The notes beneath the pieces were generated by a model, which was given only the letters and a program-made list of their open reading frames with translations, did not search any database and was not told the DNA's origin. A stretch of 50,922 nucleotides of DNA from Escherichia phage AV106. Every line of letters starts with the position of its first letter. The stretch's first letter is position 1. Position numbers and translations under genes: made by a program. Location of the stretch: sequence record OR352937.1. One strand, written 5' to 3'. Of this stretch, positions 2,481 through 49,915 are shown piece by piece.

Positions 2481-2525
2481 ATAATACACGGCATACAGTA
2501 AACGTTTTTAGCAAAAAGTGCTACA
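2481..2525 (-). promoter_or_regulatory. Dyad-motif promoter upstream of the helicase gene
   Basis: Minus strand: TAGCA-N5-TGCTA, then 22 bp, then TATTAT in the loop of hairpin CGTTTAC...GTAAACG. Confidence 0.5.
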
Positions 2526-2536
2526 GGAGAATTAAT

Positions 2537-2989
2537 ATGAATATGAAACGTATCGCAGAGTCTACTGGTGAAATCGATAAACGTCACATCAATGGTAACA
2601 ACGGAACACGACGCGGTAAAGATAAAAAGCCTCGCCAGCGCTGCGGATTTTATATCCATAAAGAAGAAACGCGCGCAGGACTGAGAGCGCGATTGGATGC
2701 TCTTATTGAATATTATGGTGGTCCGGCGGCTTGCGCAAAGGCTCTGAAAGTTAGCAACCAGACGGTTCAAGGGTGGAAGGATCGAAATATGATTTCCTGG
2801 CAAGGCGCTGAAGCGGCGCATCGCGCTTATCGCCGACAGGGTTGCAAAGGATTTCGGGCCGCATGGCTGCGATTCGATCTGAAGTTTGATGGGAACGGCA
2901 AGTGCCTTGAGAAGCGCTGCAAAAACAAGAAGTTTATGCGGGTCGTGAAGAAGGAAGATATTGGAACGACAAATAGCATTTTTAGTTAA
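2537..2989 (+). CDS. HTH DNA-binding protein (Cro/YdaS-like), candidate regulator
   Basis: Start moved to ATG after RBS AGGAGA; GGPAACAKALKVSNQTVQGWKDRNMIS looks like a helix-turn-helix; basic C-terminus; followed by a strong terminator. Confidence 0.4.
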   Translation: MNMKRIAESTGEIDKRHINGNNGTRRGKDKKPRQRCGFYIHKEETRAGLRARLDALIEYYGGPAACAKALKVSNQTVQGWKDRNMISWQGAEAAHRAYRRQGCKGFRAAWLRFDLKFDGNGKCLEKRCKNKKFMRVVKKEDIGTTNSIFS

Positions 2990-3016
2990 AACAAACGACG
3001 CGTAGCGGGTTAACAT
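2971..3016 (+). promoter_or_regulatory. Dyad-motif promoter for the primase gene, embedded in a terminator hairpin
   Basis: AATAGCATTTTTAGTTAAAAC, then 22 bp, then TAACAT in the loop of the 2997..3040 hairpin. Confidence 0.45.
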
Positions 3017-3040
3017 CCTTCTACGCGTTTTTTATTTTGG
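2997..3040 (+). terminator. Intrinsic terminator after the HTH gene
   Basis: Stem ACGCGTAG...CTACGCGT followed by TTTTTTATTTT. Confidence 0.6.
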
Positions 3041-3050
3041 AGATCTGGAA

Positions 3051-3986
3051 GTGAACGAAGAATTTATGATGTTTCAGAAAGAGGACGTTTTACCGTACAT
3101 GAAGGGGTTATGGCGCGAGGCTTTCCAATCAATCTGCGGATTGCCGAATGATGTTTTTAATAAGAAGCACCAACCCTGCCCAAACTGCGGCGGTAAAGAC
3201 CGCTTTCGCTGGACTGATAACCTGAACACCCCGGGCGACGGCGGCGCGATCTGCAACTCATGCGGTAACGACTCTGGTATTGGCTGGCTGATGAAATTAA
3301 CTGGCATGCCGTACAGCGAATGTATAAACATCCTGGGGAGATTTCTCGGCAAGGTTCCGCAGGAATACATTGTCAAGGCAAACAAGAAAGCGCGCCGAAC
3401 TCCGGTATCAGGTGTCAATGTCATGATGGCAGATCATAAGGCGGTAATGAAAGTTATGGAGCGTACAGAGAAGCGAGTAAACACACCTCTAAGTATTTTT
3501 GAGTCACTACCCACTGAATCATTCGACGTTGGCGTAAAGCGTCGAGAAGATGGCGGGGAGAGCGTATTTCACACTATCCCGTGTCAACTTGTGCATGAGG
3601 ATGGGCTTGATGGCGAGTTTTGCAATATTTTGATTATTGACGAGGAAGGAAGGGAGTCATTTTACGCTAAGAAATACACAAGTTGCTCGGTTGCCGTGAC
3701 TGGTAAAACTGAAAAGGCGATCTACTTATGCCTGAACTGGATTGATGCTCAGCATATTGCATTTCACACAAAGCAAGAGGTATGGGCCTGCTTCACTCCT
3801 GAAAACCTAGAAATGGTTGCGTACAGGTATAAAGGTGATCGAGAAGTAAGGGTGGCATGCGAACCTTCGGACAAGGAGACTTTATACATGGCAGACGACC
3901 GACAATTAAAAATAATCATCCCAAATCCGGGAGGATACCGCTCAGGAATGCAATCCAAATTATTCTCAGCAAGCGATCTACTCTAA
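3051..3986 (+). CDS. DNA primase-like protein (zinc-binding N-terminus)
   Basis: 311 aa; CPNCGGKDRFRW...CNSCG zinc-finger-like motif typical of phage/plasmid primases; GTG at 3051 or ATG at 3066. Confidence 0.55.
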   Translation: MNEEFMMFQKEDVLPYMKGLWREAFQSICGLPNDVFNKKHQPCPNCGGKDRFRWTDNLNTPGDGGAICNSCGNDSGIGWLMKLTGMPYSECINILGRFLGKVPQEYIVKANKKARRTPVSGVNVMMADHKAVMKVMERTEKRVNTPLSIFESLPTESFDVGVKRREDGGESVFHTIPCQLVHEDGLDGEFCNILIIDEEGRESFYAKKYTSCSVAVTGKTEKAIYLCLNWIDAQHIAFHTKQEVWACFTPENLEMVAYRYKGDREVRVACEPSDKETLYMADDRQLKIIIPNPGGYRSGMQSKLFSASDLL

Positions 3987-4008
3987 CCGCCTTCGGGCGG
4001 TTTTTTGT
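3984..4008 (+). terminator. Intrinsic terminator after the primase gene
   Basis: CCGCC-ttcg-GGCGG followed by TTTTTT. Confidence 0.65.
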
Positions 4009-4014
4009 TGCCAG

Positions 4015-4043
4015 TTGCAAGACTCATAACACAATGATAAAAT
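4015..4043 (+). promoter_or_regulatory. Sigma70-like promoter for the tail fibre gene
   Basis: TTGCAA, 17-bp spacer, TAAAAT; a dyad-motif copy (4051..4065) lies in the 5' UTR. Confidence 0.5.
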
Positions 4044-4086
4044 CATTGCTTAGCAATTTATGCTATTTACTTAAGGAGTTTATACT

Positions 4087-6189
4087 ATGGCTTTATATAG
4101 ACGCGGTACAGCATCAATGGATGCAGACGGCACGGTTCGCGGAACCGATACGAAATGGAAAGATCAGCTTGCTTTGATTCGAGTCGGTGCAACTATCGTA
4201 TTCCTAGAGCAACCAATTAAGCTGGCGGTAATCAGCGATATTGTGAGCGACACAGAGTTAAAGGCTATCTCTACGGATGGTCAGACTGCCGCTGACGGTA
4301 AGTATGTAATCTTGCTTAACGATTCATTGACCGTTAACGGGCTTGCTCAAAACGTTGCTGAGACTCTTAGATACTATCAAAGCAAAGAGACTGAGATCGC
4401 TGGGGCAATGGATATCATTGCGAGCCTGGATATGGATAACCTTAACCGTATCGTTGAGGAAATTAAGGCGAACAAATCAGCCGCAGAAGCTGCGCAGAAT
4501 CAAGCGGAGCTTGCTCGCGACGCATCTGCTGCAAACCGTGATGCCGCAAGCCAATTTGCAACATCGGCAGAGCAAAGCAAGGATGCAGCAAAGACCAGTG
4601 AAACGAACGCCAACAGCGCTAAGACCGCCGCCGAAACAGCTAAATCTCAGGCCGTAACCGCTAAAGACCAGGCCAAAGGCTTTCGGGACGAGGCTGAAGG
4701 CTTTGCGAACAGCGCGGACGCCTCGAAAAAAGTGCCGTATGCGGGCGTCACTGTCAGCGCGCCGACTGGCATGGCGGATATGCTTAAGCGGTTACGCGAT
4801 TCTGTTAAAGGCGGTTTTTGGCGCGTTGAGGATATTTCGCAGTTCCCATCTGGCGAAACGACCCCCTTCAAATACGGCTCGGGAGTGTGTGGGGGCGCTG
4901 GGGATACATTCTTTGCCGTCAACGTTGATTGGCGGACTTCTCGCGTTAAAGTTTTCTCAGGAAACAATAACGCGATTAACGGCACGTCAGGCAACGTGAG
5001 CGCTATTGAACTGGCGAAGCTGGGTGCTAACGGTGATGTCGCGATCGGAGACGGCGGGACAGGTGCATCGACAGACTATGGAGCGCGCGCAAACCTTCAG
5101 GTCATGCTAGAAAAACAAGCATCATTGACTACGGAAGATCTTAACAGCCTGAAAGGTGATAAGTCTGGATTTTATTATACTGCCGCGAGCGTCAACGCAA
5201 CGCCGGAGCGTAATTATCCCGTTCAGGACGCAGGTTGTCTACTTGTTCAGCGCACTGGCACTAACGATCCTAGAAGCTGCATACAAACGTACACCTCACA
5301 CAGTACCGGTCGAAAATGGATTCGCTGGCTTAGCAATGGAGCAACCGAAGCATGGTCCAAATGGTACGAGATTTATAACTCGGGGTCGTCGCCGACTTTT
5401 TCCGGAGTGGTCACTGGCTCTGCGGTAACAGCTAAGGGCGACAATGCCGAAGCTAGTGTCCGTGTTATTGCCGATACAGGCGGTAAATATAGTGCTCGTA
5501 TTTCTGTAACGAATAACGCTACAAAGAGAAGTGCTAATTTAGACCTCTCTGATGACGGTACGCTAAGCACCCCCCATATAAATTCCGTCGGGGGTATAGA
5601 CAGCCAGGGCGGGATGCTTTTGCACAAAGTGCCGTACCCGGCAATAGGCTTTCGCCCAAACCGGTATACCTCACCAGACACACAACTTGGTGCATTTACT
5701 AAGTTTGAGGTTTCGGGGCAAGATGGGGAGGTGGCGTATGTATCTCTGTCGCGGCATTACGGTACAGGTGCGGCAGAAGGGGCAATGTATGTTATGTTCC
5801 CCAACACAGGCGGCACGTTGGCTTTGCAGGGGACTTCAGGTATTAATTACAAGAAAAACATTGTTGACGCCAAAGTCAACGAGGCTCTCGATAGAATAAC
5901 GGGACAGCGATTGGTAAACTTTGTATATAAAGACGATGAACAGGAGCGCGTTCGCTTCGGTATTATCGCCGAAGAAGCGGAATTAATAGCGCCGCAGTAC
6001 ATCAAGCACCATCAGACACCTTACGAGGATATTATTGACGAAGATGGAAACAAAATCGGAGAGAAAACACGGGATAGACCATCCGTCGATGTAAACCCAA
6101 TCGTCATGGATTTGATGGGGTGCGTTCAATATCTAAATAAGCAGGTGGAGGAATTGAAAGCTGCCTTAGCGGCACTGAATAAAGCATAA
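4087..6189 (+). CDS. Tail fibre protein with C-terminal intramolecular chaperone (peptidase S74-like) domain
   Basis: 700 aa; RBS AAGGAG; Ala/Gln-rich coiled-coil shaft; C-terminal RVRFGIIAEEAELIAPQYI...LNKQVEELKAALAALNKA resembles the self-cleaving chaperone domain of tail spikes; strong terminator follows. Confidence 0.65.
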   Translation: MALYRRGTASMDADGTVRGTDTKWKDQLALIRVGATIVFLEQPIKLAVISDIVSDTELKAISTDGQTAADGKYVILLNDSLTVNGLAQNVAETLRYYQSKETEIAGAMDIIASLDMDNLNRIVEEIKANKSAAEAAQNQAELARDASAANRDAASQFATSAEQSKDAAKTSETNANSAKTAAETAKSQAVTAKDQAKGFRDEAEGFANSADASKKVPYAGVTVSAPTGMADMLKRLRDSVKGGFWRVEDISQFPSGETTPFKYGSGVCGGAGDTFFAVNVDWRTSRVKVFSGNNNAINGTSGNVSAIELAKLGANGDVAIGDGGTGASTDYGARANLQVMLEKQASLTTEDLNSLKGDKSGFYYTAASVNATPERNYPVQDAGCLLVQRTGTNDPRSCIQTYTSHSTGRKWIRWLSNGATEAWSKWYEIYNSGSSPTFSGVVTGSAVTAKGDNAEASVRVIADTGGKYSARISVTNNATKRSANLDLSDDGTLSTPHINSVGGIDSQGGMLLHKVPYPAIGFRPNRYTSPDTQLGAFTKFEVSGQDGEVAYVSLSRHYGTGAAEGAMYVMFPNTGGTLALQGTSGINYKKNIVDAKVNEALDRITGQRLVNFVYKDDEQERVRFGIIAEEAELIAPQYIKHHQTPYEDIIDEDGNKIGEKTRDRPSVDVNPIVMDLMGCVQYLNKQVEELKAALAALNKA

Positions 6190-6983: not shown

Positions 6984-7631
6984 TTATTCGAAGTTTGTGA
7001 TTGATTGAGATTGTACAGGCTTCGCGCTTGTTGCTTCAACCTGTTTTTTCTGTTCTGGTTGTGCAGGTCGAATGCCGCGAGCTTTACCGATCTCAAACTT
7101 AGCCTTTAATGCGTTGTAGTGATCCTGAATGATTGACTTGCTCGCCGTGTCCGTCTGGCGGTAAGCGTTAGCCCATACCTCTTTCAGTGATTCGATATCT
7201 TCACACGCATCAAGTTCTTTTTTCCAGTCCTTGACAGATTTCACTGCAAGCTGAGCATCGTCATCACTCTGGCTAATCCCCAGCGCTGCGGCTAATGAGT
7301 AACGTCGAGCATACGTCATTGCGGAACCTACGCCTTGCGGATCGCGTTTTGCAATCGGCATCATCATGAAGAATTTGGCCCACTGCCCAGATTTATGAAT
7401 CAACATCGTCTCAAGATGGAAGGTCGTTTCCGTGCTTGTATCAAGCATTGATTGCAGGATCATAATATCGTTGTCGGTTAGCGCCGGACTAACTGCTGCC
7501 ATCATCGCATCAAGAGTTGCGTATGAATTCTTCAGGTGATTGTTTTTTGCGTCCTTCTTTGCTTTAGCAAATTTGTTGCGAGCATTGAACAGTGCGGGAA
7601 GGATTTCGTTTGTTTCTGGTGATAATTGCAT
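6984..7631 (-). CDS. erf: ERF-family single-strand annealing protein
   Basis: Start moved to the ATG behind CCAATCAGGAGA; MTYARRYSLAAALGISQSDDDAQ matches the conserved ERF core (P22 Erf SSYARKYCLNGLFGIDDAKD). Confidence 0.75.
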   Translation of the reverse strand: MQLSPETNEILPALFNARNKFAKAKKDAKNNHLKNSYATLDAMMAAVSPALTDNDIMILQSMLDTSTETTFHLETMLIHKSGQWAKFFMMMPIAKRDPQGVGSAMTYARRYSLAAALGISQSDDDAQLAVKSVKDWKKELDACEDIESLKEVWANAYRQTDTASKSIIQDHYNALKAKFEIGKARGIRPAQPEQKKQVEATSAKPVQSQSITNFE

Positions 7632-7705
7632 CTTAACTTCTCCTGATTGGTGTATGAGGTGCATTATAACACCTCATTAATTATTTGTTTAGCTATTTGT
7701 GCCGT

Positions 7706-14614: not shown

Positions 14615-15345
14615 AATTTAAGATCCTTATGGCGAACGATTAAAACGGTATGATCCTGATACCATCCAGAATAAATATCCCTGCGAGATAGCTTGCCGAA
14701 GGCATGATGCAAGATCTGATTATCTCCCAGGTAAATCCCTGCGTGGTTCCATACCGGAACGTTTTGCCCTATCTGCATGATTACCATATCACCGAATGAA
14801 GGATTATTCTGATCTGGAATCTCAACGAAGCCGTCCTGCTTGTAATAATCCTGATAGAGATTAATTCCGTACTCAGGTTTCCACCATTCAAAATTCAATC
14901 GGCGATCGCGCAATTCTACTCCGTGCTCTTTGTGCCACGCCATAACAAGACCGTAACAGTCGAATGATCCTAATGACCACGGACGACCAATCAGAGGTAA
15001 TTTCTCTGGCTTCACAAATCGCATATCCCCTTCCGGCACGCTAACAATAATCCAGGTAACTTCCATCTCGTTGCACATGCACGTATCGTGAGCGCTTGGT
15101 AGAGTTGTAGCCCCCTCTCCTGTGTGGCTGTGAACAATTGCTATTGTTGTTGATTCCGCATGGTCCTCAATGCAAGCGTATTGTACGGAATCCATCATGA
15201 AATGATTCTCGGGATCACGATGCACATTATCAATGCGATGGTATTTTTGCACGCGGCCCTTTTGGGTTACTACCCCGCAGCATTCGCGGGGGTATTCTTC
15301 CTGAGCGTGAGTCATAATTTCAAGTTTAATTTTTGCACTAATCAT
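14611..15345 (-). CDS. Tail assembly protein (lambda K-like, MPN/JAMM plus NlpC/P60)
   Basis: Start moved to ATG behind RBS AGAGGA; JAMM-like HSHTGEGATTLPSAHD motif; C-terminal Cys/His peptidase-like region. Confidence 0.7.
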   Translation of the reverse strand: MISAKIKLEIMTHAQEEYPRECCGVVTQKGRVQKYHRIDNVHRDPENHFMMDSVQYACIEDHAESTTIAIVHSHTGEGATTLPSAHDTCMCNEMEVTWIIVSVPEGDMRFVKPEKLPLIGRPWSLGSFDCYGLVMAWHKEHGVELRDRRLNFEWWKPEYGINLYQDYYKQDGFVEIPDQNNPSFGDMVIMQIGQNVPVWNHAGIYLGDNQILHHAFGKLSRRDIYSGWYQDHTVLIVRHKDLKL

Positions 15346-16124: not shown

Positions 16125-16163
16125 TGTCTTTTCCTCTTGTTTAGTTGCAACCATTCTACAGCT

Positions 16164-16195
16164 ACAAAAAAACCCGCGCAAGGCGGGCTTTTGTC
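16164..16195 (-). terminator. Intrinsic terminator between the M-like and L-like genes
   Basis: Minus strand CCCGCC-ttgc-GCGGG followed by TTTTTTT. Confidence 0.6.
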
Positions 16196-16203
16196 ATGAA
16201 GTG

Positions 16204-16557
16204 CTATTCCATAGATGTAAACTGCTCCATAAACGTTACATTAATTTCCATCACGTCGCGTGATACTGGTTTCGCTCCCAAACTATTTGGCTTAACTACC
16301 CATATCCCGACCTTCCCGTCTGGAGGCGTCCATGCGAACGGCTTGATGCGGTGAGAATCGCAGAAGTCGTAAACAGCCATGAAATCTTCCCCAGCATAGA
16401 CAACTGAATACTCGCGCCGAGTGGTGTTAAATCCAGAAGATGCAAGCTGCATGTATCCGTTACCAAACTGTATGGATCTGTCATTGTTGGTAGTGGTAAG
16501 GGAGCCGCCGCCCCCTTGAACCTGCGTACACCAACTGAAAGTATCAAGTGCCGCCAT
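16204..16557 (-). CDS. Minor tail protein (lambda M-like)
   Basis: 117 aa; immediately downstream of the tape measure gene. Confidence 0.5.
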   Translation of the reverse strand: MAALDTFSWCTQVQGGGGSLTTTNNDRSIQFGNGYMQLASSGFNTTRREYSVVYAGEDFMAVYDFCDSHRIKPFAWTPPDGKVGIWVVKPNSLGAKPVSRDVMEINVTFMEQFTSME

Positions 16558-16559: not shown

Positions 16560-19433
16560 TTATCCTCCTGTTTTTTCCTGAATGTAATTGTAAACCTCAC
16601 CGCCCTGTGAACAAGACTCTCGAATCATTTTTTTGAACATCATTTCTACGCCCTGAGAAATCCCTCTCGGATCTGAACCGTTGTCAACTTTAACCTCCAT
16701 ACCCCTAACATCAACGACCGTCCCGCCTGCTGACTGGTTCACTGCCTTCGGTGCGGATTTAGATGCGTTGAATCCAGAGGTTGCAACACTACCCGCAGCG
16801 GCAGCAAGCGAGGTAACAGCAACGCCTGAAGATAAAGACCTAAAACCAGAGACGGCAGGCGTAGGAGTTGCCTGTGATGCCGCAGAGTCGCTAGAGGTCA
16901 ATCCACTTGCAAAACTCCATGTCTTACCTCCCGTCATGCCTGAGATCGTATTGAAGATTACCATCTGAGCAATCATCTTGATAATCATGCTAATGATGTT
17001 TTTCGCAAAGTCCTCAAAATTTGCCTTACCTGTAGTCAGGAATTGGGTTATCATATCACTCATTCCGTTAAGTGAACTTGACGCGATATCATATACGTTA
17101 CCATACATATCCATTGCAGAATCGCCGTAATCTGCAAATGCGCTTTCAGCACCTGCCAACCAGTCAGCACGCTTGGCATCTTCCGCAGTATAGTAATCAT
17201 TTTGTGCCTTGATCATGTTCTGGAGTTTTTCATCTCCTTCGCTGCCACCTGCATTAATATAGTCAGTGGTGATCTTAGCCAGCTCCGCTTGTCGCTCCAT
17301 TTCTCTGGTGCTCATCCCGCGAGATGCGTTTAGCTGCTCTGTAGCTGCCGTCAAATCATTGACAAATTTCAGTGATTTATCGGTAAGGGCGTTCAACTGC
17401 TGCTGCTTAACAATCTGATCGCCAATCTCAGCCTTTTGTTTCGCAAGCTCTAAAACCTTCTCTTGGTTTGCAAGTAGTGCTTTTTCTTCCGCAGATAACT
17501 GACGCTTAGAACTAGCTTCTCGAAGAACAGCAATTGTAGCCTCAGTCGTAAACAGCGCCTTTCTCTGTGCTGATAGTTTTTGCCCGATCTCCTTGTGCTC
17601 CTGCAAAACCTTAAGCTGCGCTTTGAGTGAAATTAACTCCTTATCGAATTGCTCTGTAGGTGAGCGTAAAATTTTCGACTGCTTATTTCGTTCGCGGTTT
17701 CGCTTTTCGATCTCTTTAGCTTCTTCCTTGATAGCGTCCTTAGTTTCCTGGCTATACTGCTTTTCAAGAGTACGGCGCTGCTTCATTGCTTCAATGTATC
17801 CCATCTCACCTTTTTCAACACGGGCGTTGATGGCATCAAGCTCTGAAGCTAACTGATCGTAGTTGTCACGAGAACTTTTTACAATATTCTCCTGTTCCTT
17901 TAGTACATCAGCGCCGAAATCACTCATTCCAGGCAGAGACTGCGTAGCCTTAATTGCAGAGGCTATAAAGTTTGAGATGTACTCATCACCCTTCGCCAGA
18001 ATCATTTTTACCTGAATTACCGTACCCTGAACTACGTCAATAATCAGGTTTAATGCTCCTAGAGTATGATCCCCAACCCACCCCCACGCATCAGAGGCCC
18101 ACTGCTTAATATCGTTCCACATTTTTTCAAGAGGCGTGGCATTATCTGCGATCGACTTCATTCGCTTCTCCATAACTTCGGCGAATAATTTCGTTGCTTC
18201 AGACACTGCCTCAGTTTCACCCTTAGTACGGCTTAGCGTATCGATATATGTCAGTTGCCCTTTTTCTAAAAAGTTGTATTGCTCGTTAAGTTTAGCCAGA
18301 CCCTTTACAGGATCGCTTGCGATTTTATCGAACTCAGCGATGATTTTACTTGCTGATTTTCCGGTTGCTGTCGACCACTCAGCGGTAGCCTTTGTGATGT
18401 TCTGGATCTGCTCGCGGGTGTACTTACCAGAACTCGCCAACTCCGTTACAATCTCGCGAATACTCCCAATGGTTGAGTTGCTTGTCTGCGCGATCTTTTT
18501 AGACACTGAATCAAGATCTTCAGCCGTAACACCTGCATAACCGCCAGTCTCAATAAGTGCATTCTGCATATCAGTTATTGACTTGTAAGAGTCATAACCG
18601 GCTTTCGCAAGAAGACCTAAAGAGCCGACAAGAACACCAACACCAACTGTGACCGGATTAATATAGCTGAGCAATACCTTAAATGTATTCCCGATCCCGC
18701 CGAACGAGTCCTTGATTTGACCGCCTTGCTGGATGGCAACCATCCAAACTGGCATACCGGACGCAAGAGATGTAACGACGTCGGTAATCTGCGCGGGAAG
18801 CATTCGCATTGCCTGCCTATATTGCCCCGCGCTAATACCTGCGGCATTCATGGCTCGACCCTGCTCTTTCAGTTTTGCGATCAGTGGCGCTGCTTCATTT
18901 GATAGTCCAAGCTGAGCCGCTTTCAGTTCCATTAACTCTGCGTGAGTTTTGCCAATAGCGTTAACCTGACTGTTCAGGGAATCCATGAACGCTTTGTTTT
19001 TCGCTGCTGCCTGCTCTTTTGCTTTCGCTTCCTGCAATGCTGCCTGCCCCTCTTCAGTAAGCATGGCTCGGCTGCGAGCAAGTTTTGCATTTTGCATGTC
19101 CAGCATTTCACCCAAACGGAAAAATGTTTCATCTGGAACAACGCCCTTTTGCCAGAGTTTATCAAGCTGCTGAGATGCAATCTTCAGCCTTTCCATTTTT
19201 GATACTGTAGGATCGATTGCCTTTTCTACAGCCTCGTACTCTTTGCGCTGGCGCTTAAGTTGCTCTGCGTGTTCTTTAGCCTTCTGCTTTGCAACCTCGG
19301 CCTCATTGATTAAAGACCCCATAGAGTCAGCGGCTTGGTCGTTAGCTTTTGAAAACTCTTTCAATGACTTGACGGCGCGCTGCACTGTCGACACATCAAC
19401 GTCAAGCGATAGACCTGCTACCTTATCAACCAT
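16560..19433 (-). CDS. Tail tape measure protein
   Basis: 957 aa; long Ala/Gln/Lys-rich coiled-coil regions; Gly-rich hydrophobic segment; located after the G/GT chaperone pair. Confidence 0.85.
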
Positions 19434-20107: not shown

Positions 20108-20189
20108 GATATTTCTCCTGATTGGTTAATGGCACTTTTTGTTAAAAGAGAATAGTGCAAACTTGATACGATGATTTTACAGAAATGAA

Positions 20190-20212
20190 TAAGGGGGCGC
20201 AAGCCCCCTTGT
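20190..20212 (-). terminator. Terminator-like hairpin after the major tail gene
   Basis: GGGGGC-gcaa-GCCCCC, with a U-rich tract on the minus strand. Confidence 0.5.
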
Positions 20213-23839: not shown

Positions 23840-23930
23840 GATTACTTCTCCTTAGTTAATAAAAAAGCCGTGATTATGTTCACAGCTTCAATAATAGCAC
23901 TTTTTGTTAAAGCGTCAAAGTGTTTTTGTG

Positions 23931-30311: not shown

Positions 30312-30836
30312 TTAAAGCATATCAAGAATGCTGTTTACCGCCTCTTTCATCGCATCCTCAGTAGTGGCGACTACTGTCGATGCGGAAGCTGACGAGTTTT
30401 CGATATTGATTGAGGTTGGCTTATCGATTCCGAGATCCTTACCGATAAAGGAGGCATTAATAACACCGTTGGCGGCAAGCTGGAATTTTTGCTCATTGAT
30501 TACCGATTCCACAAACTCCATAACCTCGCTGTATTCTTCCTCTCGCTTCCACTTAATGATCGCGGCCTCGCTTGCACCGATGAATAGTCGGTATCCGGTC
30601 CAGGTGAAGACGCGCGGCTTATGAACTAGCGATTCATAAACGCCACCCTGAAAGCTGGCTGATTCTGACGCCTTGATTGCGTTGTCCTCAGCCCATTCGA
30701 AATACTTAACTGACAGATCGAATAGTTGCTCAGGCGTCATTGCCCGGTTTTTAGCAAGAACAGTGCCGAACTTTTTCTTGTATAGCTCTTTGAAATTGCC
30801 TCCCTGGACTACGGGGGCGTTCTTAGGTTCACTCAT
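30312..30836 (-). CDS. Terminase small subunit
   Basis: Start moved to ATG behind RBS AAAGAGGATGG; directly upstream of the large terminase gene; preceded by a dyad motif and a terminator. Confidence 0.5.
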   Translation of the reverse strand: MSEPKNAPVVQGGNFKELYKKKFGTVLAKNRAMTPEQLFDLSVKYFEWAEDNAIKASESASFQGGVYESLVHKPRVFTWTGYRLFIGASEAAIIKWKREEEYSEVMEFVESVINEQKFQLAANGVINASFIGKDLGIDKPTSINIENSSASASTVVATTEDAMKEAVNSILDML

Positions 30837-30888
30837 AAATCCATCCTCTTTGTTTAACATTTAGTGCTATTTTACCATATTGCAGGCA

Positions 30889-30915
30889 TAAAAAAACCCG
30901 CCGAAGCGGGTTAGT
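30889..30915 (-). terminator. Terminator at the end of the early minus-strand array
   Basis: Minus strand CCCGC-ttcg-GCGGG followed by TTTTTTT. Confidence 0.6.
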
Positions 30916-30920
30916 ATTTA

Positions 30921-32657: not shown

Positions 32658-32703
32658 ACTATATCAAATCACCCCACCGACGTTTTAGCAATTCGCGCTA
32701 TTT
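32658..32703 (-). promoter_or_regulatory. Dyad-motif promoter
   Basis: AATAGCGCGAATTGCTAAAAC, 22 bp, TATAGT in a hairpin loop; upstream of ORF 32425..32625. Confidence 0.55.
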
Positions 32704-33952: not shown

Positions 33953-33998
33953 ATTCTATCAAATGCCCTTGAGCAAGTTTTAGCAATTAGTGCTATTA
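33953..33998 (-). promoter_or_regulatory. Dyad-motif promoter
   Basis: AATAGCACTAATTGCTAAAAC, 22 bp, TAGAAT (preceded by TGa) in the loop of AAGGGCAT...ATGCCCTT; upstream of the HAD gene. Confidence 0.55.
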
Positions 33999-34472: not shown

Positions 34473-34518
34473 ATCATAGCGCATCCCCCTTGATAGGTTT
34501 TAGCAATTCGTGCTATTC
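34473..34518 (-). promoter_or_regulatory. Dyad-motif promoter
   Basis: AATAGCACGAATTGCTAAAAC, 22 bp, TATGAT in the loop of GGGGGA...TCCCC. Confidence 0.55.
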
Positions 34519-34866: not shown

Positions 34867-35505
34867 TTACATGATGAACATCAGCGAAATCGAAGCTACC
34901 AGGAGAACAAGAGCAATAGCTAGGCCAGACAAGTCTGCTTTCTCTTCAAACTTCATTGCTGGCTTGCGGTCAACATTAATAGGCTTGACGTTGCTAATCT
35001 TGCTGGTGTTGATCTTGCCGTTGACGCGGAAAGTGCGATTGCGCTTCTTACCGAAAGTTGCGAACTTAGTGCCGCCACTGTTCCAACGAAGGCCTTCGCC
35101 ATTGTGAGTTACGGTTGCAATGCGGTGTCGGCCCGTGTCGTCGGTCAGCGCTACAGTGTGCTTTGCGTGCTCAGTAGGCACGTCGTAGATTTTGCCAACG
35201 GTAAATTTTTTGGTGTTATCACTGATACATTCGAATTTCATAAATCTTACCTCTTTATTATGCAGTTGGTTGATTGCTTCGATTACGTCGTTAAATTTAA
35301 CACCATCCACGATTCGATGGAAGATATATTTTGAGCTACCGCCATAAGGCAGGAAAATTTCCTGATATTCGTGACGCCGTACAACGTTCACGTTGCAACC
35401 GTTCTCATCAGTAATGATGAAGCTGTCATCATTTACGCGAACACCTTTGTAAGTTTTTCCCCACTTAAAACCAGATCCGCTACTTGATACGCACTCAAAT
35501 TTCAT
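34867..35505 (-). CDS. Membrane-anchored protein with internally duplicated domain
   Basis: 212 aa; two tandem domains starting MKFECVSSSGSGFKWGKTY and MKFECISDNTKKFTVGKIY; C-terminal transmembrane helix LSGLAIALVLLVASISLMFIM; terminator downstream. Confidence 0.45.
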   Translation of the reverse strand: MKFECVSSSGSGFKWGKTYKGVRVNDDSFIITDENGCNVNVVRRHEYQEIFLPYGGSSKYIFHRIVDGVKFNDVIEAINQLHNKEVRFMKFECISDNTKKFTVGKIYDVPTEHAKHTVALTDDTGRHRIATVTHNGEGLRWNSGGTKFATFGKKRNRTFRVNGKINTSKISNVKPINVDRKPAMKFEEKADLSGLAIALVLLVASISLMFIM

Positions 35506-36057: not shown

Positions 36058-36107
36058 TTGGTGTCATAACTGATTCCTCTGATTGGTTGCCATGCTTCAA
36101 TAAGGCC

Positions 36108-36153
36108 ACTATATCAAATGGCCTTGCGGAAGGTTTAGCAATTCGTGCTATCG
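36108..36153 (-). promoter_or_regulatory. Dyad-motif promoter
   Basis: GATAGCACGAATTGCTAAACC, 22 bp, TATAGT (preceded by TGa) in a hairpin, then leader AACCAATCAGAGGAATCAGTT-ATG. Confidence 0.55.
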
Positions 36154-36831: not shown

Positions 36832-36879
36832 GGATTGTACCAGTCAGGACGAATCCCCTTTTAACAATTCGTGCTTAGT
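36832..36879 (-). promoter_or_regulatory. Dyad-motif promoter (24-bp spacing variant)
   Basis: CTAAGCACGAATTGTTAAAAG, 24 bp, TACAAT (preceded by TGg) in the loop of GGGGATT...AATCCCC. Confidence 0.5.
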
Positions 36880-37394: not shown

Positions 37395-37440
37395 ACTATA
37401 TCGCAACCACATGATCGCGTTTTAACAAAAAGTGCTATTC
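37395..37440 (-). promoter_or_regulatory. Dyad-motif promoter
   Basis: AATAGCACTTTTTGTTAAAAC, 22 bp, TATAGT in the loop of ATGTGGTT...AACCACAT. Confidence 0.55.
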
Positions 37441-38410: not shown

Positions 38411-38449
38411 GGTGAATCCTCTGATTGGTATCTCGTTTTGATGGGGTAA

Positions 38450-38495
38450 CTATAGCAAGATACCCCGATCCGTTTTTAACAATTCGTGCTATTTG
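38450..38495 (-). promoter_or_regulatory. Dyad-motif promoter
   Basis: AATAGCACGAATTGTTAAAAAC, 22 bp, TATAGT (preceded by TGc) in the loop of GGGGTA...TACCCC. Confidence 0.55.
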
Positions 38496-39185: not shown

Positions 39186-39231
39186 ATAATACCCGATCCG
39201 CTCGACCGGGCTTTAACAAAAAGTGCTATTC
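39186..39231 (-). promoter_or_regulatory. Dyad-motif promoter
   Basis: AATAGCACTTTTTGTTAAAGC, 22 bp, TATTAT; upstream of ORF 38959..39153. Confidence 0.55.
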
Positions 39232-40141: not shown

Positions 40142-40348
40142 ATGTCTATAGCTGCATTTTTTATTTTTGTAACCAGTGCAACCGATGCAACCGACTTTTT
40201 CTATAAAAGTAAGCACATCTATTTATGCGCGCGGAATAGTATGTTTTTTATACTATGCATCACGAAATATATGCCACCATCAAAAAATGCGGTTGCACCT
40301 ATTACGCCGATTACATACCAATATATAATATAATAAATAAATAAATAT

Positions 40349-40427: not shown

Positions 40428-40677
40428 CTGATGGTATACAACTATTACGACAATTACAACTACCGCATAGACGAATAGCACGTTTTGCTAAAAATGGAGA
40501 TGACTACAAGGCGAACCGGGTAACACTAGATCCTCCCTCTCACAATCATTGCATTCCAAGCAACAATCACATCAACAGTTGCACATCATGCAACAATCAC
40601 ATTTCATCATTCGGGATCAATCAGGATCGCAATTATTCCAGATATTCCATTGCTGGTGGAATAATGAGCAACTATTG

Positions 40678-40724
40678 GAATAGCATTTTTTGCTAACGAC
40701 TTGGTCAGGCTGGCAGTGTATGAT
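40678..40724 (+). promoter_or_regulatory. Dyad-motif promoter for the C5-methyltransferase gene
   Basis: AATAGCATTTTTTGCTAACG, 23 bp, TATGAT, then leader CATCAACCAATCAGTAGGAGA. Confidence 0.5.
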
Positions 40725-40757
40725 TCATCACATCAACCAATCAGTAGGAGATTTGCA

Positions 40758-41462
40758 ATGAAATTAATCTGGTCGCTATTCGACGGTTCCGGTCTTGCTG
40801 GTCATGAACTGGCTAAGCAAGGTCACAAGGTGATGTGCTTCAACTTTGACGGAGCCGATCACGGGGATTATGCAAAGTACAATGCCCGGGTGGAGCATCC
40901 GAACATTGAGTATGTGAACGTGTTCATTGACGCAGCGTTTGAGCGTGATGCTATCGCTGGCGTGTATGGCAAGCCGGATTTCATTATGGCCTTCCCGCCG
41001 TGCACTGACCTGGCTGTTAGTGGTGCCGCTCACTTCGCAAGAAAGCGTGAACGCGATCCGTTATTCCAGGAGAAGGCTGTTGCCACCGCCCGGATTACTG
41101 CAAATATTGGCGACGCCCTGGGCGTGACTTACATCATTGAGAATCCGGTTAGCGTCCTGTCATCTGCCTGGAGAAAACCAAATCACTCCTTCAATCCCTG
41201 GGAGTATGGCGGCTATCTTCCTGAGAATGACTCACACCCCTGGTTCCCTATGTATATTGCGCCGCGCGATGCTTACCCGAAGAAAACTTGTCTGTGGACC
41301 TCTGACGATTTTGTCATGCCTGAAAGAAAACCTGTAAGCCTACCTGACGGGTACTCTGCACAGCACAGTAAGCTAGGCGGCAAATCTGCCAAAACTAAGT
41401 TGATACGATCCCTGTCGCCGCGTGGATTTTTCAAAGCGATCGCAAATAGCACTTTTTGTTAA
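40758..41462 (+). CDS. DNA (cytosine-5) methyltransferase, short Dcm-like
   Basis: Start moved to ATG behind a dyad-motif promoter and leader; motif I LFDGSGLAG (FxGxG), motif IV FPPC (catalytic Pro-Cys), motif VI IENPV (ENV-like). Confidence 0.55.
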   Translation: MKLIWSLFDGSGLAGHELAKQGHKVMCFNFDGADHGDYAKYNARVEHPNIEYVNVFIDAAFERDAIAGVYGKPDFIMAFPPCTDLAVSGAAHFARKRERDPLFQEKAVATARITANIGDALGVTYIIENPVSVLSSAWRKPNHSFNPWEYGGYLPENDSHPWFPMYIAPRDAYPKKTCLWTSDDFVMPERKPVSLPDGYSAQHSKLGGKSAKTKLIRSLSPRGFFKAIANSTFC

Positions 41463-41489
41463 AACTCGATCGGTGTGATTTGGCATAAT
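41445..41489 (+). promoter_or_regulatory. Dyad-motif promoter
   Basis: AATAGCACTTTTTGTTAAAAC, 22 bp, CATAAT; overlaps the 3' end of the methyltransferase ORF. Confidence 0.55.
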
Positions 41490-41909: not shown

Positions 41910-41953
41910 ATAGCACGAATTGCTAAACGCCCCGAGGGGAATCGGGGTATAGT
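41908..41953 (+). promoter_or_regulatory. Dyad-motif promoter
   Basis: AATAGCACGAATTGCTAAACG, 22 bp, TATAGT in the loop of CCCCGA...TCGGGG, then leader CATCAACCAATCAGGAGA. Confidence 0.55.
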
Positions 41954-41984
41954 GAACACATCAACCAATCAGGAGAATCGCCAG

Positions 41985-43260: not shown

Positions 43261-43306
43261 GATAGCACGAATAGCTAAAGACAATAAATAGGGAGTAAGG
43301 TATATT
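43261..43306 (+). promoter_or_regulatory. Dyad-motif promoter
   Basis: GATAGCACGAATAGCTAAAG, 23 bp, TATATT. Confidence 0.5.
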
Positions 43307-43776: not shown

Positions 43777-43820
43777 ATAGCACGATTTGTTAATATTGCC
43801 GTAAGGTCATTTGATAAAGT
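43776..43820 (+). promoter_or_regulatory. Dyad-motif promoter
   Basis: AATAGCACGATTTGTTAAT, 22 bp, TAAAGT (preceded by TGa) in the loop of AAGGTCA...TGACCTT, then leader AACCAATCAGGAATT. Confidence 0.55.
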
Positions 43821-43856: not shown

Positions 43857-44273
43857 ATGAAATCCATCAAACTGAAATGTACTCACGCAGATAAAATCAC
43901 AGGATTTGAAGTAAACAACATATACAAAGGTCGTGAGCGCTATGATGGCACTCGCGAAGTAAAATTAAAATGCGGGAAGTATTTAAAACTTGAAAAGCAT
44001 GATGAATTACAGATTCACGGATCTGATGAAATTTTCTTCGCGAAGTTCACTGAGTTGAAAACAAAGACGCTCAAGTGCACCGGGCTTGACCATCGCAACC
44101 CAATGAAAAAATCATTCAAAGTTGGCAAGCGTTACCAGGTTGAAAGCGGTCGCGCTCTCGGTGGCGTAGCTGGTTACATCTTTGATGAAGATGGTTGTCG
44201 CTGGACCTTATTTCGCGAAGAGGTTGGTTTTAGTATCGCAGACGGCACAACCTTTGAGGCCAAATACTTATAA
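43857..44273 (+). CDS. Hypothetical protein
   Basis: 138 aa; leader AACCAATCAGGAATTAACGAA; dyad motif and TAAAGT upstream. Confidence 0.45.
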   Translation: MKSIKLKCTHADKITGFEVNNIYKGRERYDGTREVKLKCGKYLKLEKHDELQIHGSDEIFFAKFTELKTKTLKCTGLDHRNPMKKSFKVGKRYQVESGRALGGVAGYIFDEDGCRWTLFREEVGFSIADGTTFEAKYL

Positions 44274-44275
44274 CC

Positions 44276-44320
44276 AATAGCACTTTTTGCAAAACGCGTG
44301 TACCATTGGCGGTGTATCAT
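44276..44320 (+). promoter_or_regulatory. Dyad-motif promoter
   Basis: AATAGCACTTTTTGCAAAACG, 22 bp, TATCAT in the loop of CGGTGTA...TACACCG. Confidence 0.55.
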
Positions 44321-46442: not shown

Positions 46443-46470
46443 GAAAGGAGGCTTAGCCTCCTTTTTTTCC
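46443..46470. terminator. Bidirectional terminator between the convergent plus early array and lysis cassette
   Basis: AGGAGGC-tta-GCCTCCT followed by TTTTTTT. Confidence 0.6.
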
Positions 46471-47557: not shown

Positions 47558-47675
47558 AATCTCACCATATATTTTTTGAACAAGTGAGTCGATTTTAACC
47601 TTCAAATTTATTTTATACAACGCAAAAAGGCCAGCATGTAAATCATGCCAGCCCGTAAGGTTATGAATGATATTG

Positions 47676-47852
47676 TTAATCTAGCTCAATAAATTCCAGG
47701 TAATGACCATTCAGAGGAGCTTGGATTGTTGAACCTCTACCATCGTAAATCTCAAACAATCCACCTCCGAAATCATAACCAACACTATAGATCTGATTTA
47801 CGCGGAATGGAAGCGTTTTGGAATCATTTCGGATGCACTTAACTCGTTTCAT
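47676..47852 (-). CDS. Hypothetical small protein (58 aa, absent from the ORF track)
   Basis: ATG behind RBS AAAGAGGG, with a degenerate dyad motif and TATATT 22 bp apart upstream; translates MKRVKCIRNDSKTLPFRVNQIYSVGYDFGGGLFEIYDGRGSTIQAPLNGHYLEFIELD. Confidence 0.35.
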   Translation of the reverse strand: MKRVKCIRNDSKTLPFRVNQIYSVGYDFGGGLFEIYDGRGSTIQAPLNGHYLEFIELD

Positions 47853-47881
47853 GAAATACCCTCTTTGTTTTCTATGTGGTC

Positions 47882-47924
47882 AATATACCCGAATCCCTTC
47901 GGGAATTTTTGGCGATTAGTGCGA
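47882..47924 (-). promoter_or_regulatory. Degenerate dyad-motif promoter upstream of small ORF 47676..47852
   Basis: GATCGCACTAATCGCCAAAAA, 22 bp, TATATT; hairpin CCCGAA...TTCGGG. Confidence 0.4.
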
Positions 47925-49067
47925 TCCTGTCATTTCTGGACGATAGATGAATCGACCGATTTCACCAAACTGTTTATCGTAAACGATTACCGCCGCCTGG
48001 CGATATGAGCGCCACCCGCCTCGCGCTGCGTATGCATCTTTCGCGCCTAACTGCCCGTGAACCTCATCAATACCTAACGAGTGCTCAGTGATTGTCTGAT
48101 GATGCCAGTGTCCGCTATGCGTGTACACGTATTTGCTTTCACCAAAATCTGCGCGGAAATCTGCTGCCATAGCTGCGAGTCGAGTCTCTGCTTTTTTCAT
48201 CGTGTGACCGTGAGTATATCCCAGCAAAGTATTTCCCCAGCGAGTCTTATGTAGAACCATAGGGCTTACGTCAACGAATACTCTTGGCTCGTCTTCATAG
48301 TATGCAGCCATTGCGGCGCGCAACCAAATCATCCCGGCCTGGTCGTGGTTTCCTTCGACAACCTGAACTTCGACCTCTTTGTGTTTAGTCAGCATTTTGT
48401 CGATAGCTCGTCGCACCGATCGAATAGCCACATGCACCAATTTCGCATATCGTGAATCCTGATCCAGAACGTGACCACTTGCCGGGGTAACAGCATCAAG
48501 ACCGTCTGAGTGAAGGAAGTCGCCGCCGATTAACAGAACAGCCTTCTCTGCGTTCGGGGCAATATCGATCGCGTAGTTAAAGAAGTCATTCAGCACTTTT
48601 TCCGCTACGTCTGTAGAGTAGTTCTCTCCGCATTCATGCTTGTGAGCAAGCGCGCCAATGTGAAGATCGAACACCGGGTAGAGTGCTAGCTTGCCAATAG
48701 CGGTTGTAAGCCCTTGCGAGGTGAGTAGCTCAGTTGGTTTTGCTCGCGGCAAGTCTTCACAGAATGCAATACGCGCTGCTTCCATCATTGCAGCAATCTT
48801 CTCTCGGTCCTGATCGGTCTTAACCCATCGCACTACCTCGGTCCCATCGCCGCGAATCATCGTTGATGTGCCTTTTACCATGAATCCTTCCGGTACGTTC
48901 TTAGCAACATGCTCGTTACCGTGGAAGTGACCTTCTTTTGCAAGTTTGGCGTGACGCGCTTCAACTGTGCGGATGTGCATACCGTACTTTTCCGCGATCT
49001 CGCGAAGTGTAAGGCCGCTCATGCGCTCTTCGATAAGTTGCTCGGTAGTGATTTTAGCTTGTGACAT
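47916..49067 (-). CDS. Calcineurin-like metallophosphoesterase with N-terminal HTH domain
   Basis: 383 aa; N-terminal LTLREIAEKYGMHIRTVEARHAKL (HTH-like); phosphoesterase motifs GDFLHSD, GNHD, GHWHH. Confidence 0.6.
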   Translation of the reverse strand: MSQAKITTEQLIEERMSGLTLREIAEKYGMHIRTVEARHAKLAKEGHFHGNEHVAKNVPEGFMVKGTSTMIRGDGTEVVRWVKTDQDREKIAAMMEAARIAFCEDLPRAKPTELLTSQGLTTAIGKLALYPVFDLHIGALAHKHECGENYSTDVAEKVLNDFFNYAIDIAPNAEKAVLLIGGDFLHSDGLDAVTPASGHVLDQDSRYAKLVHVAIRSVRRAIDKMLTKHKEVEVQVVEGNHDQAGMIWLRAAMAAYYEDEPRVFVDVSPMVLHKTRWGNTLLGYTHGHTMKKAETRLAAMAADFRADFGESKYVYTHSGHWHHQTITEHSLGIDEVHGQLGAKDAYAARGGWRSYRQAAVIVYDKQFGEIGRFIYRPEMTGSH

Positions 49068-49145
49068 ATTTTAATCCTTACATGATAATGAAATACATTA
49101 CTGAAAATGAAATTAGCGGTGTTAATACTACAGCAAAATAAAGAT

Positions 49146-49547
49146 TCATGCCACAGCCTTTAACCAGAATCCTAGATCTGACGATTTAAACTCAACCAGC
49201 TTTCCGTCAACCTCAAGCATCATACTGTTTCTACCAGGTGAGTAATAACCTATATGCAACTCCTGATCGATCCCTATGGTACACAGCACGTTTGCGAAGT
49301 CAGGAGGCAACCAATCAGAGAAAGGTATTTTCTTAACCTGCTTCTTTCCGATCCATATGGTCTGGTAATCGTCTTCGTTAATGTTTAAGCCTGGAAGGCT
49401 TGTTGTTCTTTGCTGCTTTTCGTTCTCTCTCAATTCTCTTTCCCTCTTCACGATAAAACTCAAGTGACGGAGTTGCTGGCACTCTATGCATTTTTCTCGG
49501 CATATCTTCCATAAATGAAATCTTGCCATTTGAGATAATGCTAACAT
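49146..49547 (-). CDS. Hypothetical protein (start uncertain)
   Basis: 133 aa in the track; overlaps ORF 49378..49650 in another frame and a dyad-like sequence lies inside the overlap. Confidence 0.3.
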   Translation of the reverse strand: MLALSQMARFHLWKICREKCIECQQLRHLSFIVKRERELRENEKQQRTTSLPGLNINEDDYQTIWIGKKQVKKIPFSDWLPPDFANVLCTIGIDQELHIGYYSPGRNSMMLEVDGKLVEFKSSDLGFWLKAVA

Positions 49548-49627
49548 CCTTTATATAGAAATATTTCGCTATTAGTGCTATATCGTCTGAGATTCCGCAT
49601 TCCTTCGCGTGCTCCCAAACCTCTCGT

Positions 49628-49837
49628 TTACCTTGTTTTTTTATCAGCATTGGTTAGTTTCTCCACGCTTTCAATAAAACACTCAACATCTTTGACTGAG
49701 CAGAGGTAATAAGCCATTTTAAGGAAGTTCATAGCAATATCCCAATCAAAGTTACCGCCTTTCTTGTCAGTGATATGAACAGCCATTTTTGCGGACTGTT
49801 GAGCGATATTGAAAAAGTTTGCGTTAATGCGTGCCAT
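49628..49837 (-). CDS. Hypothetical protein
   Basis: 69 aa; RBS GAGGAATAAGAAG; dyad motif and TATAGT upstream. Confidence 0.4.
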   Translation of the reverse strand: MARINANFFNIAQQSAKMAVHITDKKGGNFDWDIAMNFLKMAYYLCSVKDVECFIESVEKLTNADKKTR

Positions 49838-49869
49838 CTTCTTATTCCTCGTTTCGTTTTGATGAAATA

Positions 49870-49915
49870 ACTATACCCGACTTTCGCCGGGTAGTTTTAG
49901 CAATTAGTGCTGTAA
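49870..49915 (-). promoter_or_regulatory. Dyad-motif promoter
   Basis: TACAGCACTAATTGCTAAAAC, 22 bp, TATAGT in the loop of ACCCGG...CGGGT. Confidence 0.55.

Follow-up and report, generated by a model that had tools for sequence, protein, structure and literature searches.

Predicted class II marbox promoter cassettes at the early genes of Escherichia phage AV106 and related T1-like phages

The marbox is an asymmetric site for one monomer of the AraC-family proteins MarA, SoxS or Rob (RamA in Klebsiella and Salmonella). In class II promoters of the micF type, a 20-bp asymmetric box in the forward orientation lies 18 bp upstream of a sigma-70 -10 element, is centered at about -41 and is not accompanied by a -35 element (PMC9638938, PMC10268841). 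Cryo-electron microscopy of class II complexes placed the SoxS site at -41.5 (PMC9638938) and the RamA site at approximately -41 (PMC8811837), and a genome-wide analysis in Salmonella found class II boxes in the forward orientation, clustered near -41 and without a recognizable -35 (PMC10268841). Here we analyze a repeated box in the genome of Escherichia phage AV106 (OR352937.1; the whole stretch of 50,922 nt is hereinafter the window) that has the same layout and differs from the micF-type promoters in that it is present in about 20 copies in a 51-kb virulent genome, is far nearer the consensus and is fused to a hairpin; the phage promoters are predicted here from sequence.

The repeat itself has been described. 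The 2024 re-annotation of phage TLS reported a 21-nt direct repeat, aaATAGCACnnnTTGnTAAAA, in 18 intergenic copies that run with transcription and precede start codons by about 76 nt, as well as its presence in T1, Rtp and Rogue1; the authors proposed stoperators, enhancer-binding sites or UP elements, and the function is on their list of open questions for T1-like phages (PMC11447400). The box in the window is the same element as this repeat, whereas that paper mentions neither a marbox nor a constant 18-bp spacing from the -10 element nor the hairpin. A second likeness is to the middle promoters of T4 (MotA box at -30, together with AsiA), where an activator on the DNA likewise stands in for a missing -35 element; the T4 factors, however, are phage-encoded and require sigma appropriation, whereas the site described here is that of a host activator, with no homologue encoded by the phage. 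A literature search that excluded most subscription journals found no paper tying the marbox, MarA, SoxS or Rob to phage promoters or to the Drexlerviridae. As far as searched, the identity of the repeat as a class II marbox cassette, its micF-like spacing, the hairpin and its occurrence outside the Drexlerviridae are new, and so is the use by phages of a mechanism known from the host.

The box and its match to the marbox

The window is the complete genome of a T1-like siphovirus (Tunavirus, Drexlerviridae) whose closest relatives are vB_EcoS-DELF2, IME18 and Sfin-1, with about 91-93% identity (DELF2 is classified as Drexlerviridae, Tunavirinae, Tunavirus). The late structural genes are located on the minus strand between about 4 and 31 kb, and many small early genes form two divergent arms around 40.5 kb and a segment spanning the window ends. 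A preliminary description of this DNA had listed 18 copies of a dyad, TAGCA-N5-TGCTA, oriented with the early genes and separated by 22 (in a few cases 23 or 24) bp from a -10 element. The observation is confirmed: the element is present in 18 of the 18 intervals, whose coordinates agree with the box-to--10 spans within 1-2 bp, and every copy is co-oriented with the downstream gene. The exact dyad occurs 8 times in the window against 0.04 expected from shuffled sequences. A weight matrix built from 17 copies yields the consensus 20-mer ATAGCAC(G/T)(A/T)(A/T)TTG(C/T)TAAAAC, i.e. ATAGCAC(G/T)WWTTGYTAAAAC, and detects 25 sites in the window at a threshold of at least 14 bits. A good -10 hexamer (score of at least 4.5, with a chance of 0.011 at any given position) lies exactly 18 bp past box position 20 in 18 of these 25 sites and at 19 bp in 2 more, distances that equal 22 and 23 bp when counted from TGCTA. 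Of the copies that had not been listed before, 7686-7705(-), 49562-49581(-) and 20129-20148(+) have a -10 at 17-18 bp, 16188-16207(-) has one at 29 bp, and 4047-4066(-), 23894-23913(+), 30851-30870(-) and 40475-40494(+) lack a -10 at the proper distance. Altogether, the window contains about 22 promoter modules, each a box with its -10 element, and about 6 orphan boxes, far above the chance level.

The preliminary description had not recognized the motif as the site of a known host factor. It does fit the published definitions of the MarA/SoxS/Rob marbox, which were taken from the E. coli literature and are independent of the phage. Exact matches to GCANNWWNTGNNAAA (gcannwwntgnnaaa; PMC12052159) number 18 in the window compared with 0.94 in shuffles; the classical 20-mer AYnGCACnnWnnRYYAAAYn (AYNGCACNNWNNRYYAAAY) is found 19 times with at most one mismatch, compared with 1.1; and GCAHWWWWTGYYAAA (PMC6900184) is found 9 times, compared with 0.03. 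The consensus phage box fits the marbox at every specified position but one (position 19), and the box ACGGCACAAATAGCTAAACA (7686-7705) shows no mismatches to the Martin consensus. The enrichment extends to T1, TLS, Rtp and a Klebsiella Webervirus, with 12-20 exact matches each.

In the reciprocal test, a matrix derived from the phage boxes only was scanned over 601-bp regions of E. coli K-12. The known marbox of the micF region, ACAGCACTGAATGTCAAAAC, is the best match there, with 14.4 bits (2.5 for the next best), and so is the known marbox of the mar region, ATGCCACGTTTTGCTAAATC, with 15.5 bits (0.7 for the next best). For fumC, the best match is the box listed at -39 by PMC12052159, with a low score of 5.7 bits, and for zwf the known box is the best, with a low score of 2.6 bits; the matrix gave no convincing match on the sodA and fpr promoters. 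Tentative boxes of inaA and nfo could not be validated against PMC12052159, which gives a different inaA site, and were not used. Because the weaker host boxes score poorly with the phage matrix, the phage boxes resemble the best host marboxes rather than the average ones. The assignment of the box as a functional-grade marbox, which comes from such sequence comparisons, is much firmer than any dependence of the infection on MarA, SoxS or Rob. A sigma-54 promoter (TGGCAC-N5-TTGC) was considered as well and rejected: the box has AG instead of GG, and GCAC is 3 nt, not 5, from TTGC. An Rfam scan of the whole window detected no family.

Geometry, asymmetry and distribution of the modules

In micF, a class II promoter whose structure has been solved with SoxS, Rob and RamA, the forward box lies exactly 18 bp from TAGAAT, and the annotated 5' end, 7 nt past the hexamer, puts the box center at -41.5. 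The phage boxes show the same distance of 18 bp (sometimes 17 or 19) in 70-90% of the sites in five genomes, which puts their center near -41 (about -40.5 if the predicted starts are assumed to lie 7 nt past the hexamer). In all canonical modules the box is in the forward orientation towards the gene, with the GCAC half distal to the -10. The hexamer at the canonical 17-bp -35 position is AAAACN, with 2-3 matches out of 6, as in micF; the -10 hexamers are ordinary (TATAGT, TATGAT, TAGAAT and similar), and 8 of the 19 best modules (42%) have a TGn-extended -10. Canonical -35/-10 promoters show no excess in the early region (38 versus 38.4 in shuffles), and neither do simple intrinsic terminators (18 versus 17.9). 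The lack of a -35 element and the class II geometry, both proposed in the preliminary description, which also drew the analogy to T4 middle promoters, are borne out.

Its interpretation of the box as a symmetric dyad bound by a dimer is not. Among 87 canonical modules from five genomes, mirror complementarity is confined to five pairs (positions 2-6 with 12-16), of which the 4/14 pair is complementary in just 57% of the modules: G4 is invariant, and the position that mirrors it has C in 50 modules and T in 34. The near-invariant positions A1, C7, T11, A17 and A18, by contrast, break the symmetry, being complementary to their mirror partners in 0-14% of the modules. With its asymmetric conservation and a GCAC half that in every case faces away from the -10, the box bears the signature of an oriented monomer site and not of a dimer operator; such asymmetry fits a monomeric protein that has a pair of helix-turn-helix (HTH) motifs.

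The same module is found in four Drexlerviridae lineages, and the spacing that the preliminary description had suggested looking for in related genomes recurs in each of them: a -10-like hexamer lies exactly 18 bp from the box in 18 of 25 sites in the window, 15 of 22 in T1, 16 of 20 in TLS, 18 of 21 in Rtp and 13 of 14 in the Klebsiella Webervirus, and the sequences of the spacer differ freely between copies. No box was detected in the unrelated Dhillonvirus coliphage HK578. A scan of IMG/VR with ATAGCACKWWTTGYTAAAA gave at least 120 stretches, mostly T1-sized contigs among the matches listed; some of the listed box loci lack T1-like proteins and led to two P22-like podoviruses outside the Drexlerviridae, namely Enterobacteria phage IME_EC2 (NC_047742, Murrayvirus, 59% GC) and Escherichia phage C130_2 (NC_048067, Hungariovirus, 55% GC). 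IME_EC2 has six clear modules, all six co-oriented with the downstream genes when read against the annotation, and C130_2 has about seven. The genes that these phages share with the Drexlerviridae are only those for replication, recombination, methylation and lysis (primase, helicase, exonuclease VIII, Erf, methylases, endolysin and a few tiny weak matches), with 29-47% identity. The element is thus not specific to one phage, as had been supposed, but is family-wide, extends beyond the Drexlerviridae and had already been described as an unexplained repeat (PMC11447400). In both podoviruses the GC-rich hairpin is usually located in the 5' untranslated region (5'UTR) and not over the -10. The same modules are present in OR754315.1, "Stutzerimonas phage STP9" (UNVERIFIED_ORG), a C130_2-like sequence (87.7% identity, with 56% of a 5.3-kb early segment aligned).

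The putative reader of the box and its mode of action

We propose that the early genes of these phages probably run through a host activator of the MarA/SoxS/Rob family that acts at class II marbox cassettes. Host RNA polymerase with sigma-70 would use the -10 element, often an extended one, and Rob, MarA or SoxS (in Klebsiella, RamA), sitting as a monomer on positions -50 to -31, would take the place of the missing -35 and contact sigma-70 region 4 and the alpha C-terminal domain. A host activator of stress and drug resistance would in this way replace -35 recognition at about 20 early transcription units. Because Rob is constitutively abundant, it would be the likeliest default factor, and stress from drugs, oxidants or bile would bring higher expression through MarA, SoxS or RamA. 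Alternatively, the factor could be bound to the polymerase beforehand, as in the pre-recruitment or "co-sigma" model (PMC9638938). No papers on transcription starts in the Drexlerviridae were found in the literature search.

As for the protein that reads the box, the preliminary description had named two candidates encoded in the window, neither of which is supported. The HTH protein encoded at 2537-2989 contains only a weak single HTH of the Cro/YdaS type; it is conserved across the Drexlerviridae (51-55% identity), yet the helix presumed to recognize DNA differs between subfamilies (NQTVQGW, LKTVWGW, PQAVEEW, IQVVQQW) with no change in the box, and no homologue of this T1-type protein was found in IME_EC2 or C130_2 (tblastn E of at least 0.5). 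The supposed HTH-phosphoesterase, a 383-aa protein encoded at 47916-49067, gave no Pfam match, and annotations in relatives call it a DNA repair exonuclease. Among the genes shared by the Drexlerviridae, IME_EC2 and C130_2 there is no recognizable common regulator, and the HTH proteins of the podoviruses are of different kinds. A phage-encoded activator of the AraC family was rejected: a profile and phmmer search for MarA/SoxS/Rob homologues among the 888 six-frame open reading frames (ORFs) of the window, for which the MarA query was verified against PDB 1BL0, found none (best E of about 1). Because there is no MarA-like ORF, no HTH candidate that holds, no regulator in common and no excess of box-independent promoters, a host factor would be the most economical reader of the box.

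Several points weigh against this view. The phage box is tighter than the host marboxes, with A3, T11-T12, T15 and A19 nearly fixed, and such conservation could reflect a different or additional reader; a small protein similar to T1 gp19 is weakly common to all three phage groups; and the near-copy of C130_2 was deposited as a Stutzerimonas phage, a host label that looks doubtful and that, if true, would challenge an enterobacterial factor. Further, unstressed cells contain little MarA and SoxS, most of the Rob is sequestered, and, to our knowledge, the classic genetics of T1 resistance never implicated rob, marA or soxS. This silence could be explained by redundancy of the factors together with basal activity of the extended -10 promoters.

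The alternative that fares best is a phage-encoded protein without sequence similarity to AraC proteins, either a MotA-like activator or a repressor like those acting on L5 stoperators, with the likeness to the marbox being coincidence or mimicry. A reader of this kind would account for the uniformity of the box and for its 5-bp palindromic core, would agree with the stoperator or enhancer-site proposal made for TLS (PMC11447400), and has potential candidates in the conserved Cro-like HTH protein and in the many early proteins of unknown function of the Drexlerviridae. It is nevertheless unlikely, given that the match to the marbox spans consensus, orientation and the exact 18-bp micF spacing and that conservation is asymmetric. 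The early arms show no surplus of canonical promoters from which a phage activator would be made first, the HTH candidate has a variable recognition helix facing a constant box and is missing from the module-carrying podoviruses, and the three phage groups have no recognizable regulator in common.

Much less probable is a protein-free, A/T-rich UP-like or bent-DNA element that boosts extended -10 promoters through the alpha C-terminal domain. The interval from -50 to -31 does overlap the proximal UP subsite, the box contains an A/T-rich central tract (TTTTT or GAATT) and an AAAA run, UP elements were named by the TLS authors (PMC11447400), and the proportion of modules with an extended -10 is in keeping with this idea; G4, C5 and G13, however, are invariant or nearly so across the 87 modules, and C7 is present in 78 of them, unlike an A/T-only UP element, and the pattern is that of the marbox's two recognition elements.

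The proposed activation by a host factor of the MarA/SoxS/Rob family turns a twenty-year-old annotation puzzle into a directly testable question. If it is true, a large, therapeutically used phage family that includes the Klebsiella weberviruses and the T1-like phages of E. coli and Shigella would depend on, or be tuned by, the multidrug-resistance regulators MarA, SoxS, Rob and RamA; mutations in marR, soxR or ramR and exposure to bile, salicylate or oxidants should alter phage productivity; and phage DNA could serve as a sponge for MarA/SoxS/Rob/RamA. It would, moreover, clearly exemplify a virulent phage that leaves -35 recognition to an activator of its host instead of encoding a factor for it, and the modules could be used as compact stress-inducible synthetic promoters.

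Hairpins, individual modules and boxes in other positions

Most modules also carry a hairpin. In 78 modules, the 44-nt segment that begins at box position 19 and extends 18 nt beyond the -10 has a mean folding energy of -12.3 kcal/mol compared with -6.3 for random genomic 44-mers, 74% of the modules reach -10 kcal/mol or below compared with 11% of these controls, and the mean z against shuffles is -3.0. The stems differ between copies (AAGGCCA/TGGCCTT, AAGGGCA/TGCCCTT, GGGGTA/TACCCC, CCCGGC/GTCGGG), such that the structure is conserved and not the sequence. In the most common layout, spacer nucleotides 7-12 are paired with the six nucleotides after the -10 (23 of 78 modules versus 0-8 in shifted registers); in another, the whole hairpin is in the spacer and abuts the -10. 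The GC-rich hairpin, which usually covers the spacer, the -10 or the start, is likely to dampen transcription reading through from the unit upstream, and the transcript of the module itself, starting inside or after the hairpin and lacking a complete stem, would escape this attenuation.

A comparable arrangement is known from the promoter-early stem-loop cassettes (PeSLs) of T4-type phages (RB49, phi1), in which a stem-loop between -35 and -10 or over the -10 ends upstream transcription and marks recombination junctions (PMC2839356). Like the modules described here, PeSLs are short intergenic cassettes of promoter and stem-loop in front of small early ORFans (PMC2839356); the difference is that PeSLs have a canonical -35 and the phage modules have a marbox instead. 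Of the 24 homology breakpoints between the window and T1, 7 are no more than 80 bp from a module, where 7.9% would be expected, and four are as close as 1-6 bp to a box; because indels favor intergenic DNA anyway, this excess is only suggestive of recombination junctions. T1 homology ends exactly at box edges at 37440, 38493, 44271-44276 and 47889-47931, and the latter two breaks correspond to two HNH endonuclease genes of T1 (ST8, ST15) that are absent from the window. That the cassettes are mainly recombination linkers or terminators between mobile early genes, with a secondary resemblance to promoters, is the least probable of the alternatives even with these breakpoints and the precedent of PeSL-mediated shuffling in T4-type phages (PMC2839356), as intergenic indels are expected in any case and a role in transcription is indicated by the fixed -10 spacing, by modules and genes running the same way and by conservation of the start region CATCGAAAC; the linker and promoter roles are, moreover, not exclusive.

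The modules and the boxes in other positions are listed in Table 1.

Table 1. Predicted promoter modules, orphan boxes and related promoters in the window (the hexamer is preceded by the TGn extension where present; MFE, minimum free energy)
Feature	Coordinates	Strand	Box	Distance to -10 (bp)	-10 element	Context
Module	2481..2524	-	GTAGCACTTTTTGCTAAAAA (2505-2524)	18	TATTAT (2481-2486)	Predicted to drive helicase gene 424-2442
Module	2973..3016	+	ATAGCATTTTTAGTTAAAAC	18	TAACAT	-10 within terminator-hairpin loop; upstream of primase gene; MFE -17.3, z -5.2
Reverse box	4047..4066	-	ATAGCATAAATTGCTAAGCA			20 nt upstream of tail-fibre start codon; kept in T1 at 34902
Module	7663..7705	-	ACGGCACAAATAGCTAAACA	17	TATAAT	Hairpin ATGAGGTG/CACCTCAT around -10; upstream of Erf-like gene
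Forward box with distant -10	16153..16207	-	ATAGCACTTCATGACAAAAG	29	TAGAAT	Terminator between box and -10; spacing like zwf
Module	20129..20172	+	ATGGCACTTTTTGTTAAAAG	18	TGA-TACGAT	Antisense to late genes; kept in T1 at 18850(-)
Canonical sigma-70 promoter	23891..23918	-			TTGACG-16-(TGc)TATTAT	Just upstream of major head gene
Orphan forward box	30851..30870	-	ATAGCACTAAATGTTAAACA			About +1 to +20 of terS extended -10 promoter (TGgTAAAAT)
Module	32658..32701	-	ATAGCGCGAATTGCTAAAAC	18	TGA-TATAGT	MFE -22.4
Module	33953..33996	-	ATAGCACTAATTGCTAAAAC	18	TGA-TAGAAT	Upstream of polynucleotide kinase gene
Module	34473..34516	-	ATAGCACGAATTGCTAAAAC	18	TATGAT	Box equals consensus box
Module	36108..36151	-	ATAGCACGAATTGCTAAACC	18	TGA-TATAGT	Hairpin AAGGCCA/TGGCCTT flanks -10
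Module	36834..36877	-	TAAGCACGAATTGTTAAAAG	18	TGG-TACAAT	
Module	37395..37438	-	ATAGCACTTTTTGTTAAAAC	18	TATAGT	T1 homology breakpoint at 37440
Module	38449..38492	-	ATAGCACGAATTGTTAAAAA	18	TGC-TATAGT	T1 breakpoint at 38493
Module	39186..39229	-	ATAGCACTTTTTGTTAAAGC	18	TATTAT	Spacer hairpin abuts -10
Strong orphan box	40475..40494	+	ATAGCACGTTTTGCTAAAAA			29 bits; no -10 at 17-19 bp; divergent region between early arms; T1 position 120(-)
Module	40680..40724	+	ATAGCATTTTTTGCTAACGA	19	TATGAT	Before first gene of rightward early arm
Module	41446..41489	+	ATAGCACTTTTTGTTAAAAC	18	TGG-CATAAT	
Module	41910..41953	+	ATAGCACGAATTGCTAAACG	18	TATAGT	
Module	43262..43306	+	ATAGCACGAATAGCTAAAGA	19	TATATT	
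Module	43777..43820	+	ATAGCACGATTTGTTAATAT	18	TGA-TAAAGT	
Module	44277..44320	+	ATAGCACTTTTTGCAAAACG	18	TATCAT	Upstream of DNA helicase gene; T1 breakpoints 44271, 44276
Module	47882..47925	-	ATCGCACTAATCGCCAAAAA	18	TATATT	T1 breakpoint at 47931
Weaker module	49538..49581	-	ATAGCACTAATAGCGAAATA	18	TGT-TAGCAT	Kept in T1 at 40308
Module	49870..49913	-	ACAGCACTAATTGCTAAAAC	18	TATAGT	Spacer hairpin CCCGGC/GTCGGG abuts -10

The promoter in front of the major head gene is the best canonical promoter of the late region. A reverse box, 23894-23913(+), fills its spacer and the beginning of its -10, and this arrangement is kept in T1 (approximately 15050-15140) and in TLS (approximately 15010-15072; TTGAAC-16-TATATT). 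MarA represses pbpG from a spacer-overlapping box (PMC12052159), and by analogy the factor proposed to activate the early promoters may act as a repressor at the head-promoter box. A terminator-like hairpin, 23889-23864, directly follows this promoter, over the expected start site. Another reverse box is located about 20 nt upstream of the start codon of the gp40-like gene. Upstream of terS (window 30836-30920, minus strand), a strong terminator is followed by an extended -10 without a -35 in five of the five Drexlerviridae genomes (TGgTAAAAT, TGgTATAAT, TGgTATACT), with no box upstream; a box over the terS start region is found only in the two Tunavirus genomes of these five, the window and T1.

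These boxes allow a more speculative and rather doubtful extension of the scheme, in which T1-like phages, together with two or more genera of podoviruses, would use a single host factor of the Mar/Sox/Rob family as both stress sensor and developmental timer. The early genes would be turned on from about 20 optimal class II boxes, with a greater effect in cells overproducing MarA, SoxS or RamA, whether stressed or multidrug-resistant, and the boxes at the major head promoter, the tail-fibre and gp40-like genes and the terS start would hold the late genes down; replication would then multiply the high-affinity boxes and titrate the factor, which would also disarm the mar/sox/rob response of the host.

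Several modules have further features of their own. The box of the helicase module (2505-2524) overlaps the 5'UTR of the divergent HTH gene. The Cro-like HTH gene has its -10, TATAAT, at 2480-2485 (+) and the helicase gene has TATTAT at 2481-2486 (-), an overlap of two hexamers placed back to back; a factor on this box could favor one of the two directions. The distant -10 at 16153-16207 resembles that of the zwf box of the host, which lies 30 bp from TACAGT. The antisense module 20129-20172 (+) is followed, about 30 nt downstream, by a bidirectional terminator (20191-20210) and would give a transcript of about 40 nt; this could be a small antisense RNA; alternatively, the box, which overlaps the leader of the gp40-like gene, may act on that gene.

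For the Erf-like gene, the mechanical ORF start, ATG 7664, which is also the annotated start in T1, overlaps the TATAAT of the module, and an in-frame ATG at 7631, preceded by GGAGAAG, is a more plausible start; the annotation of the Erf-like gene in the T1 family may be 11 codons too long. A leader, ACCAATCAG(G)AG, recurs after many modules, e.g. at 41960-41975, 40730-40748, 36085-36100 and 7637-7650, and the start region, CATCGAAAC or CATCAACCA, is kept after many modules across subfamilies, with TACCCCATCGAAAC being common in Rtp and the Webervirus; these recurrent sequences may represent a conserved initial transcribed sequence or a translation enhancer.

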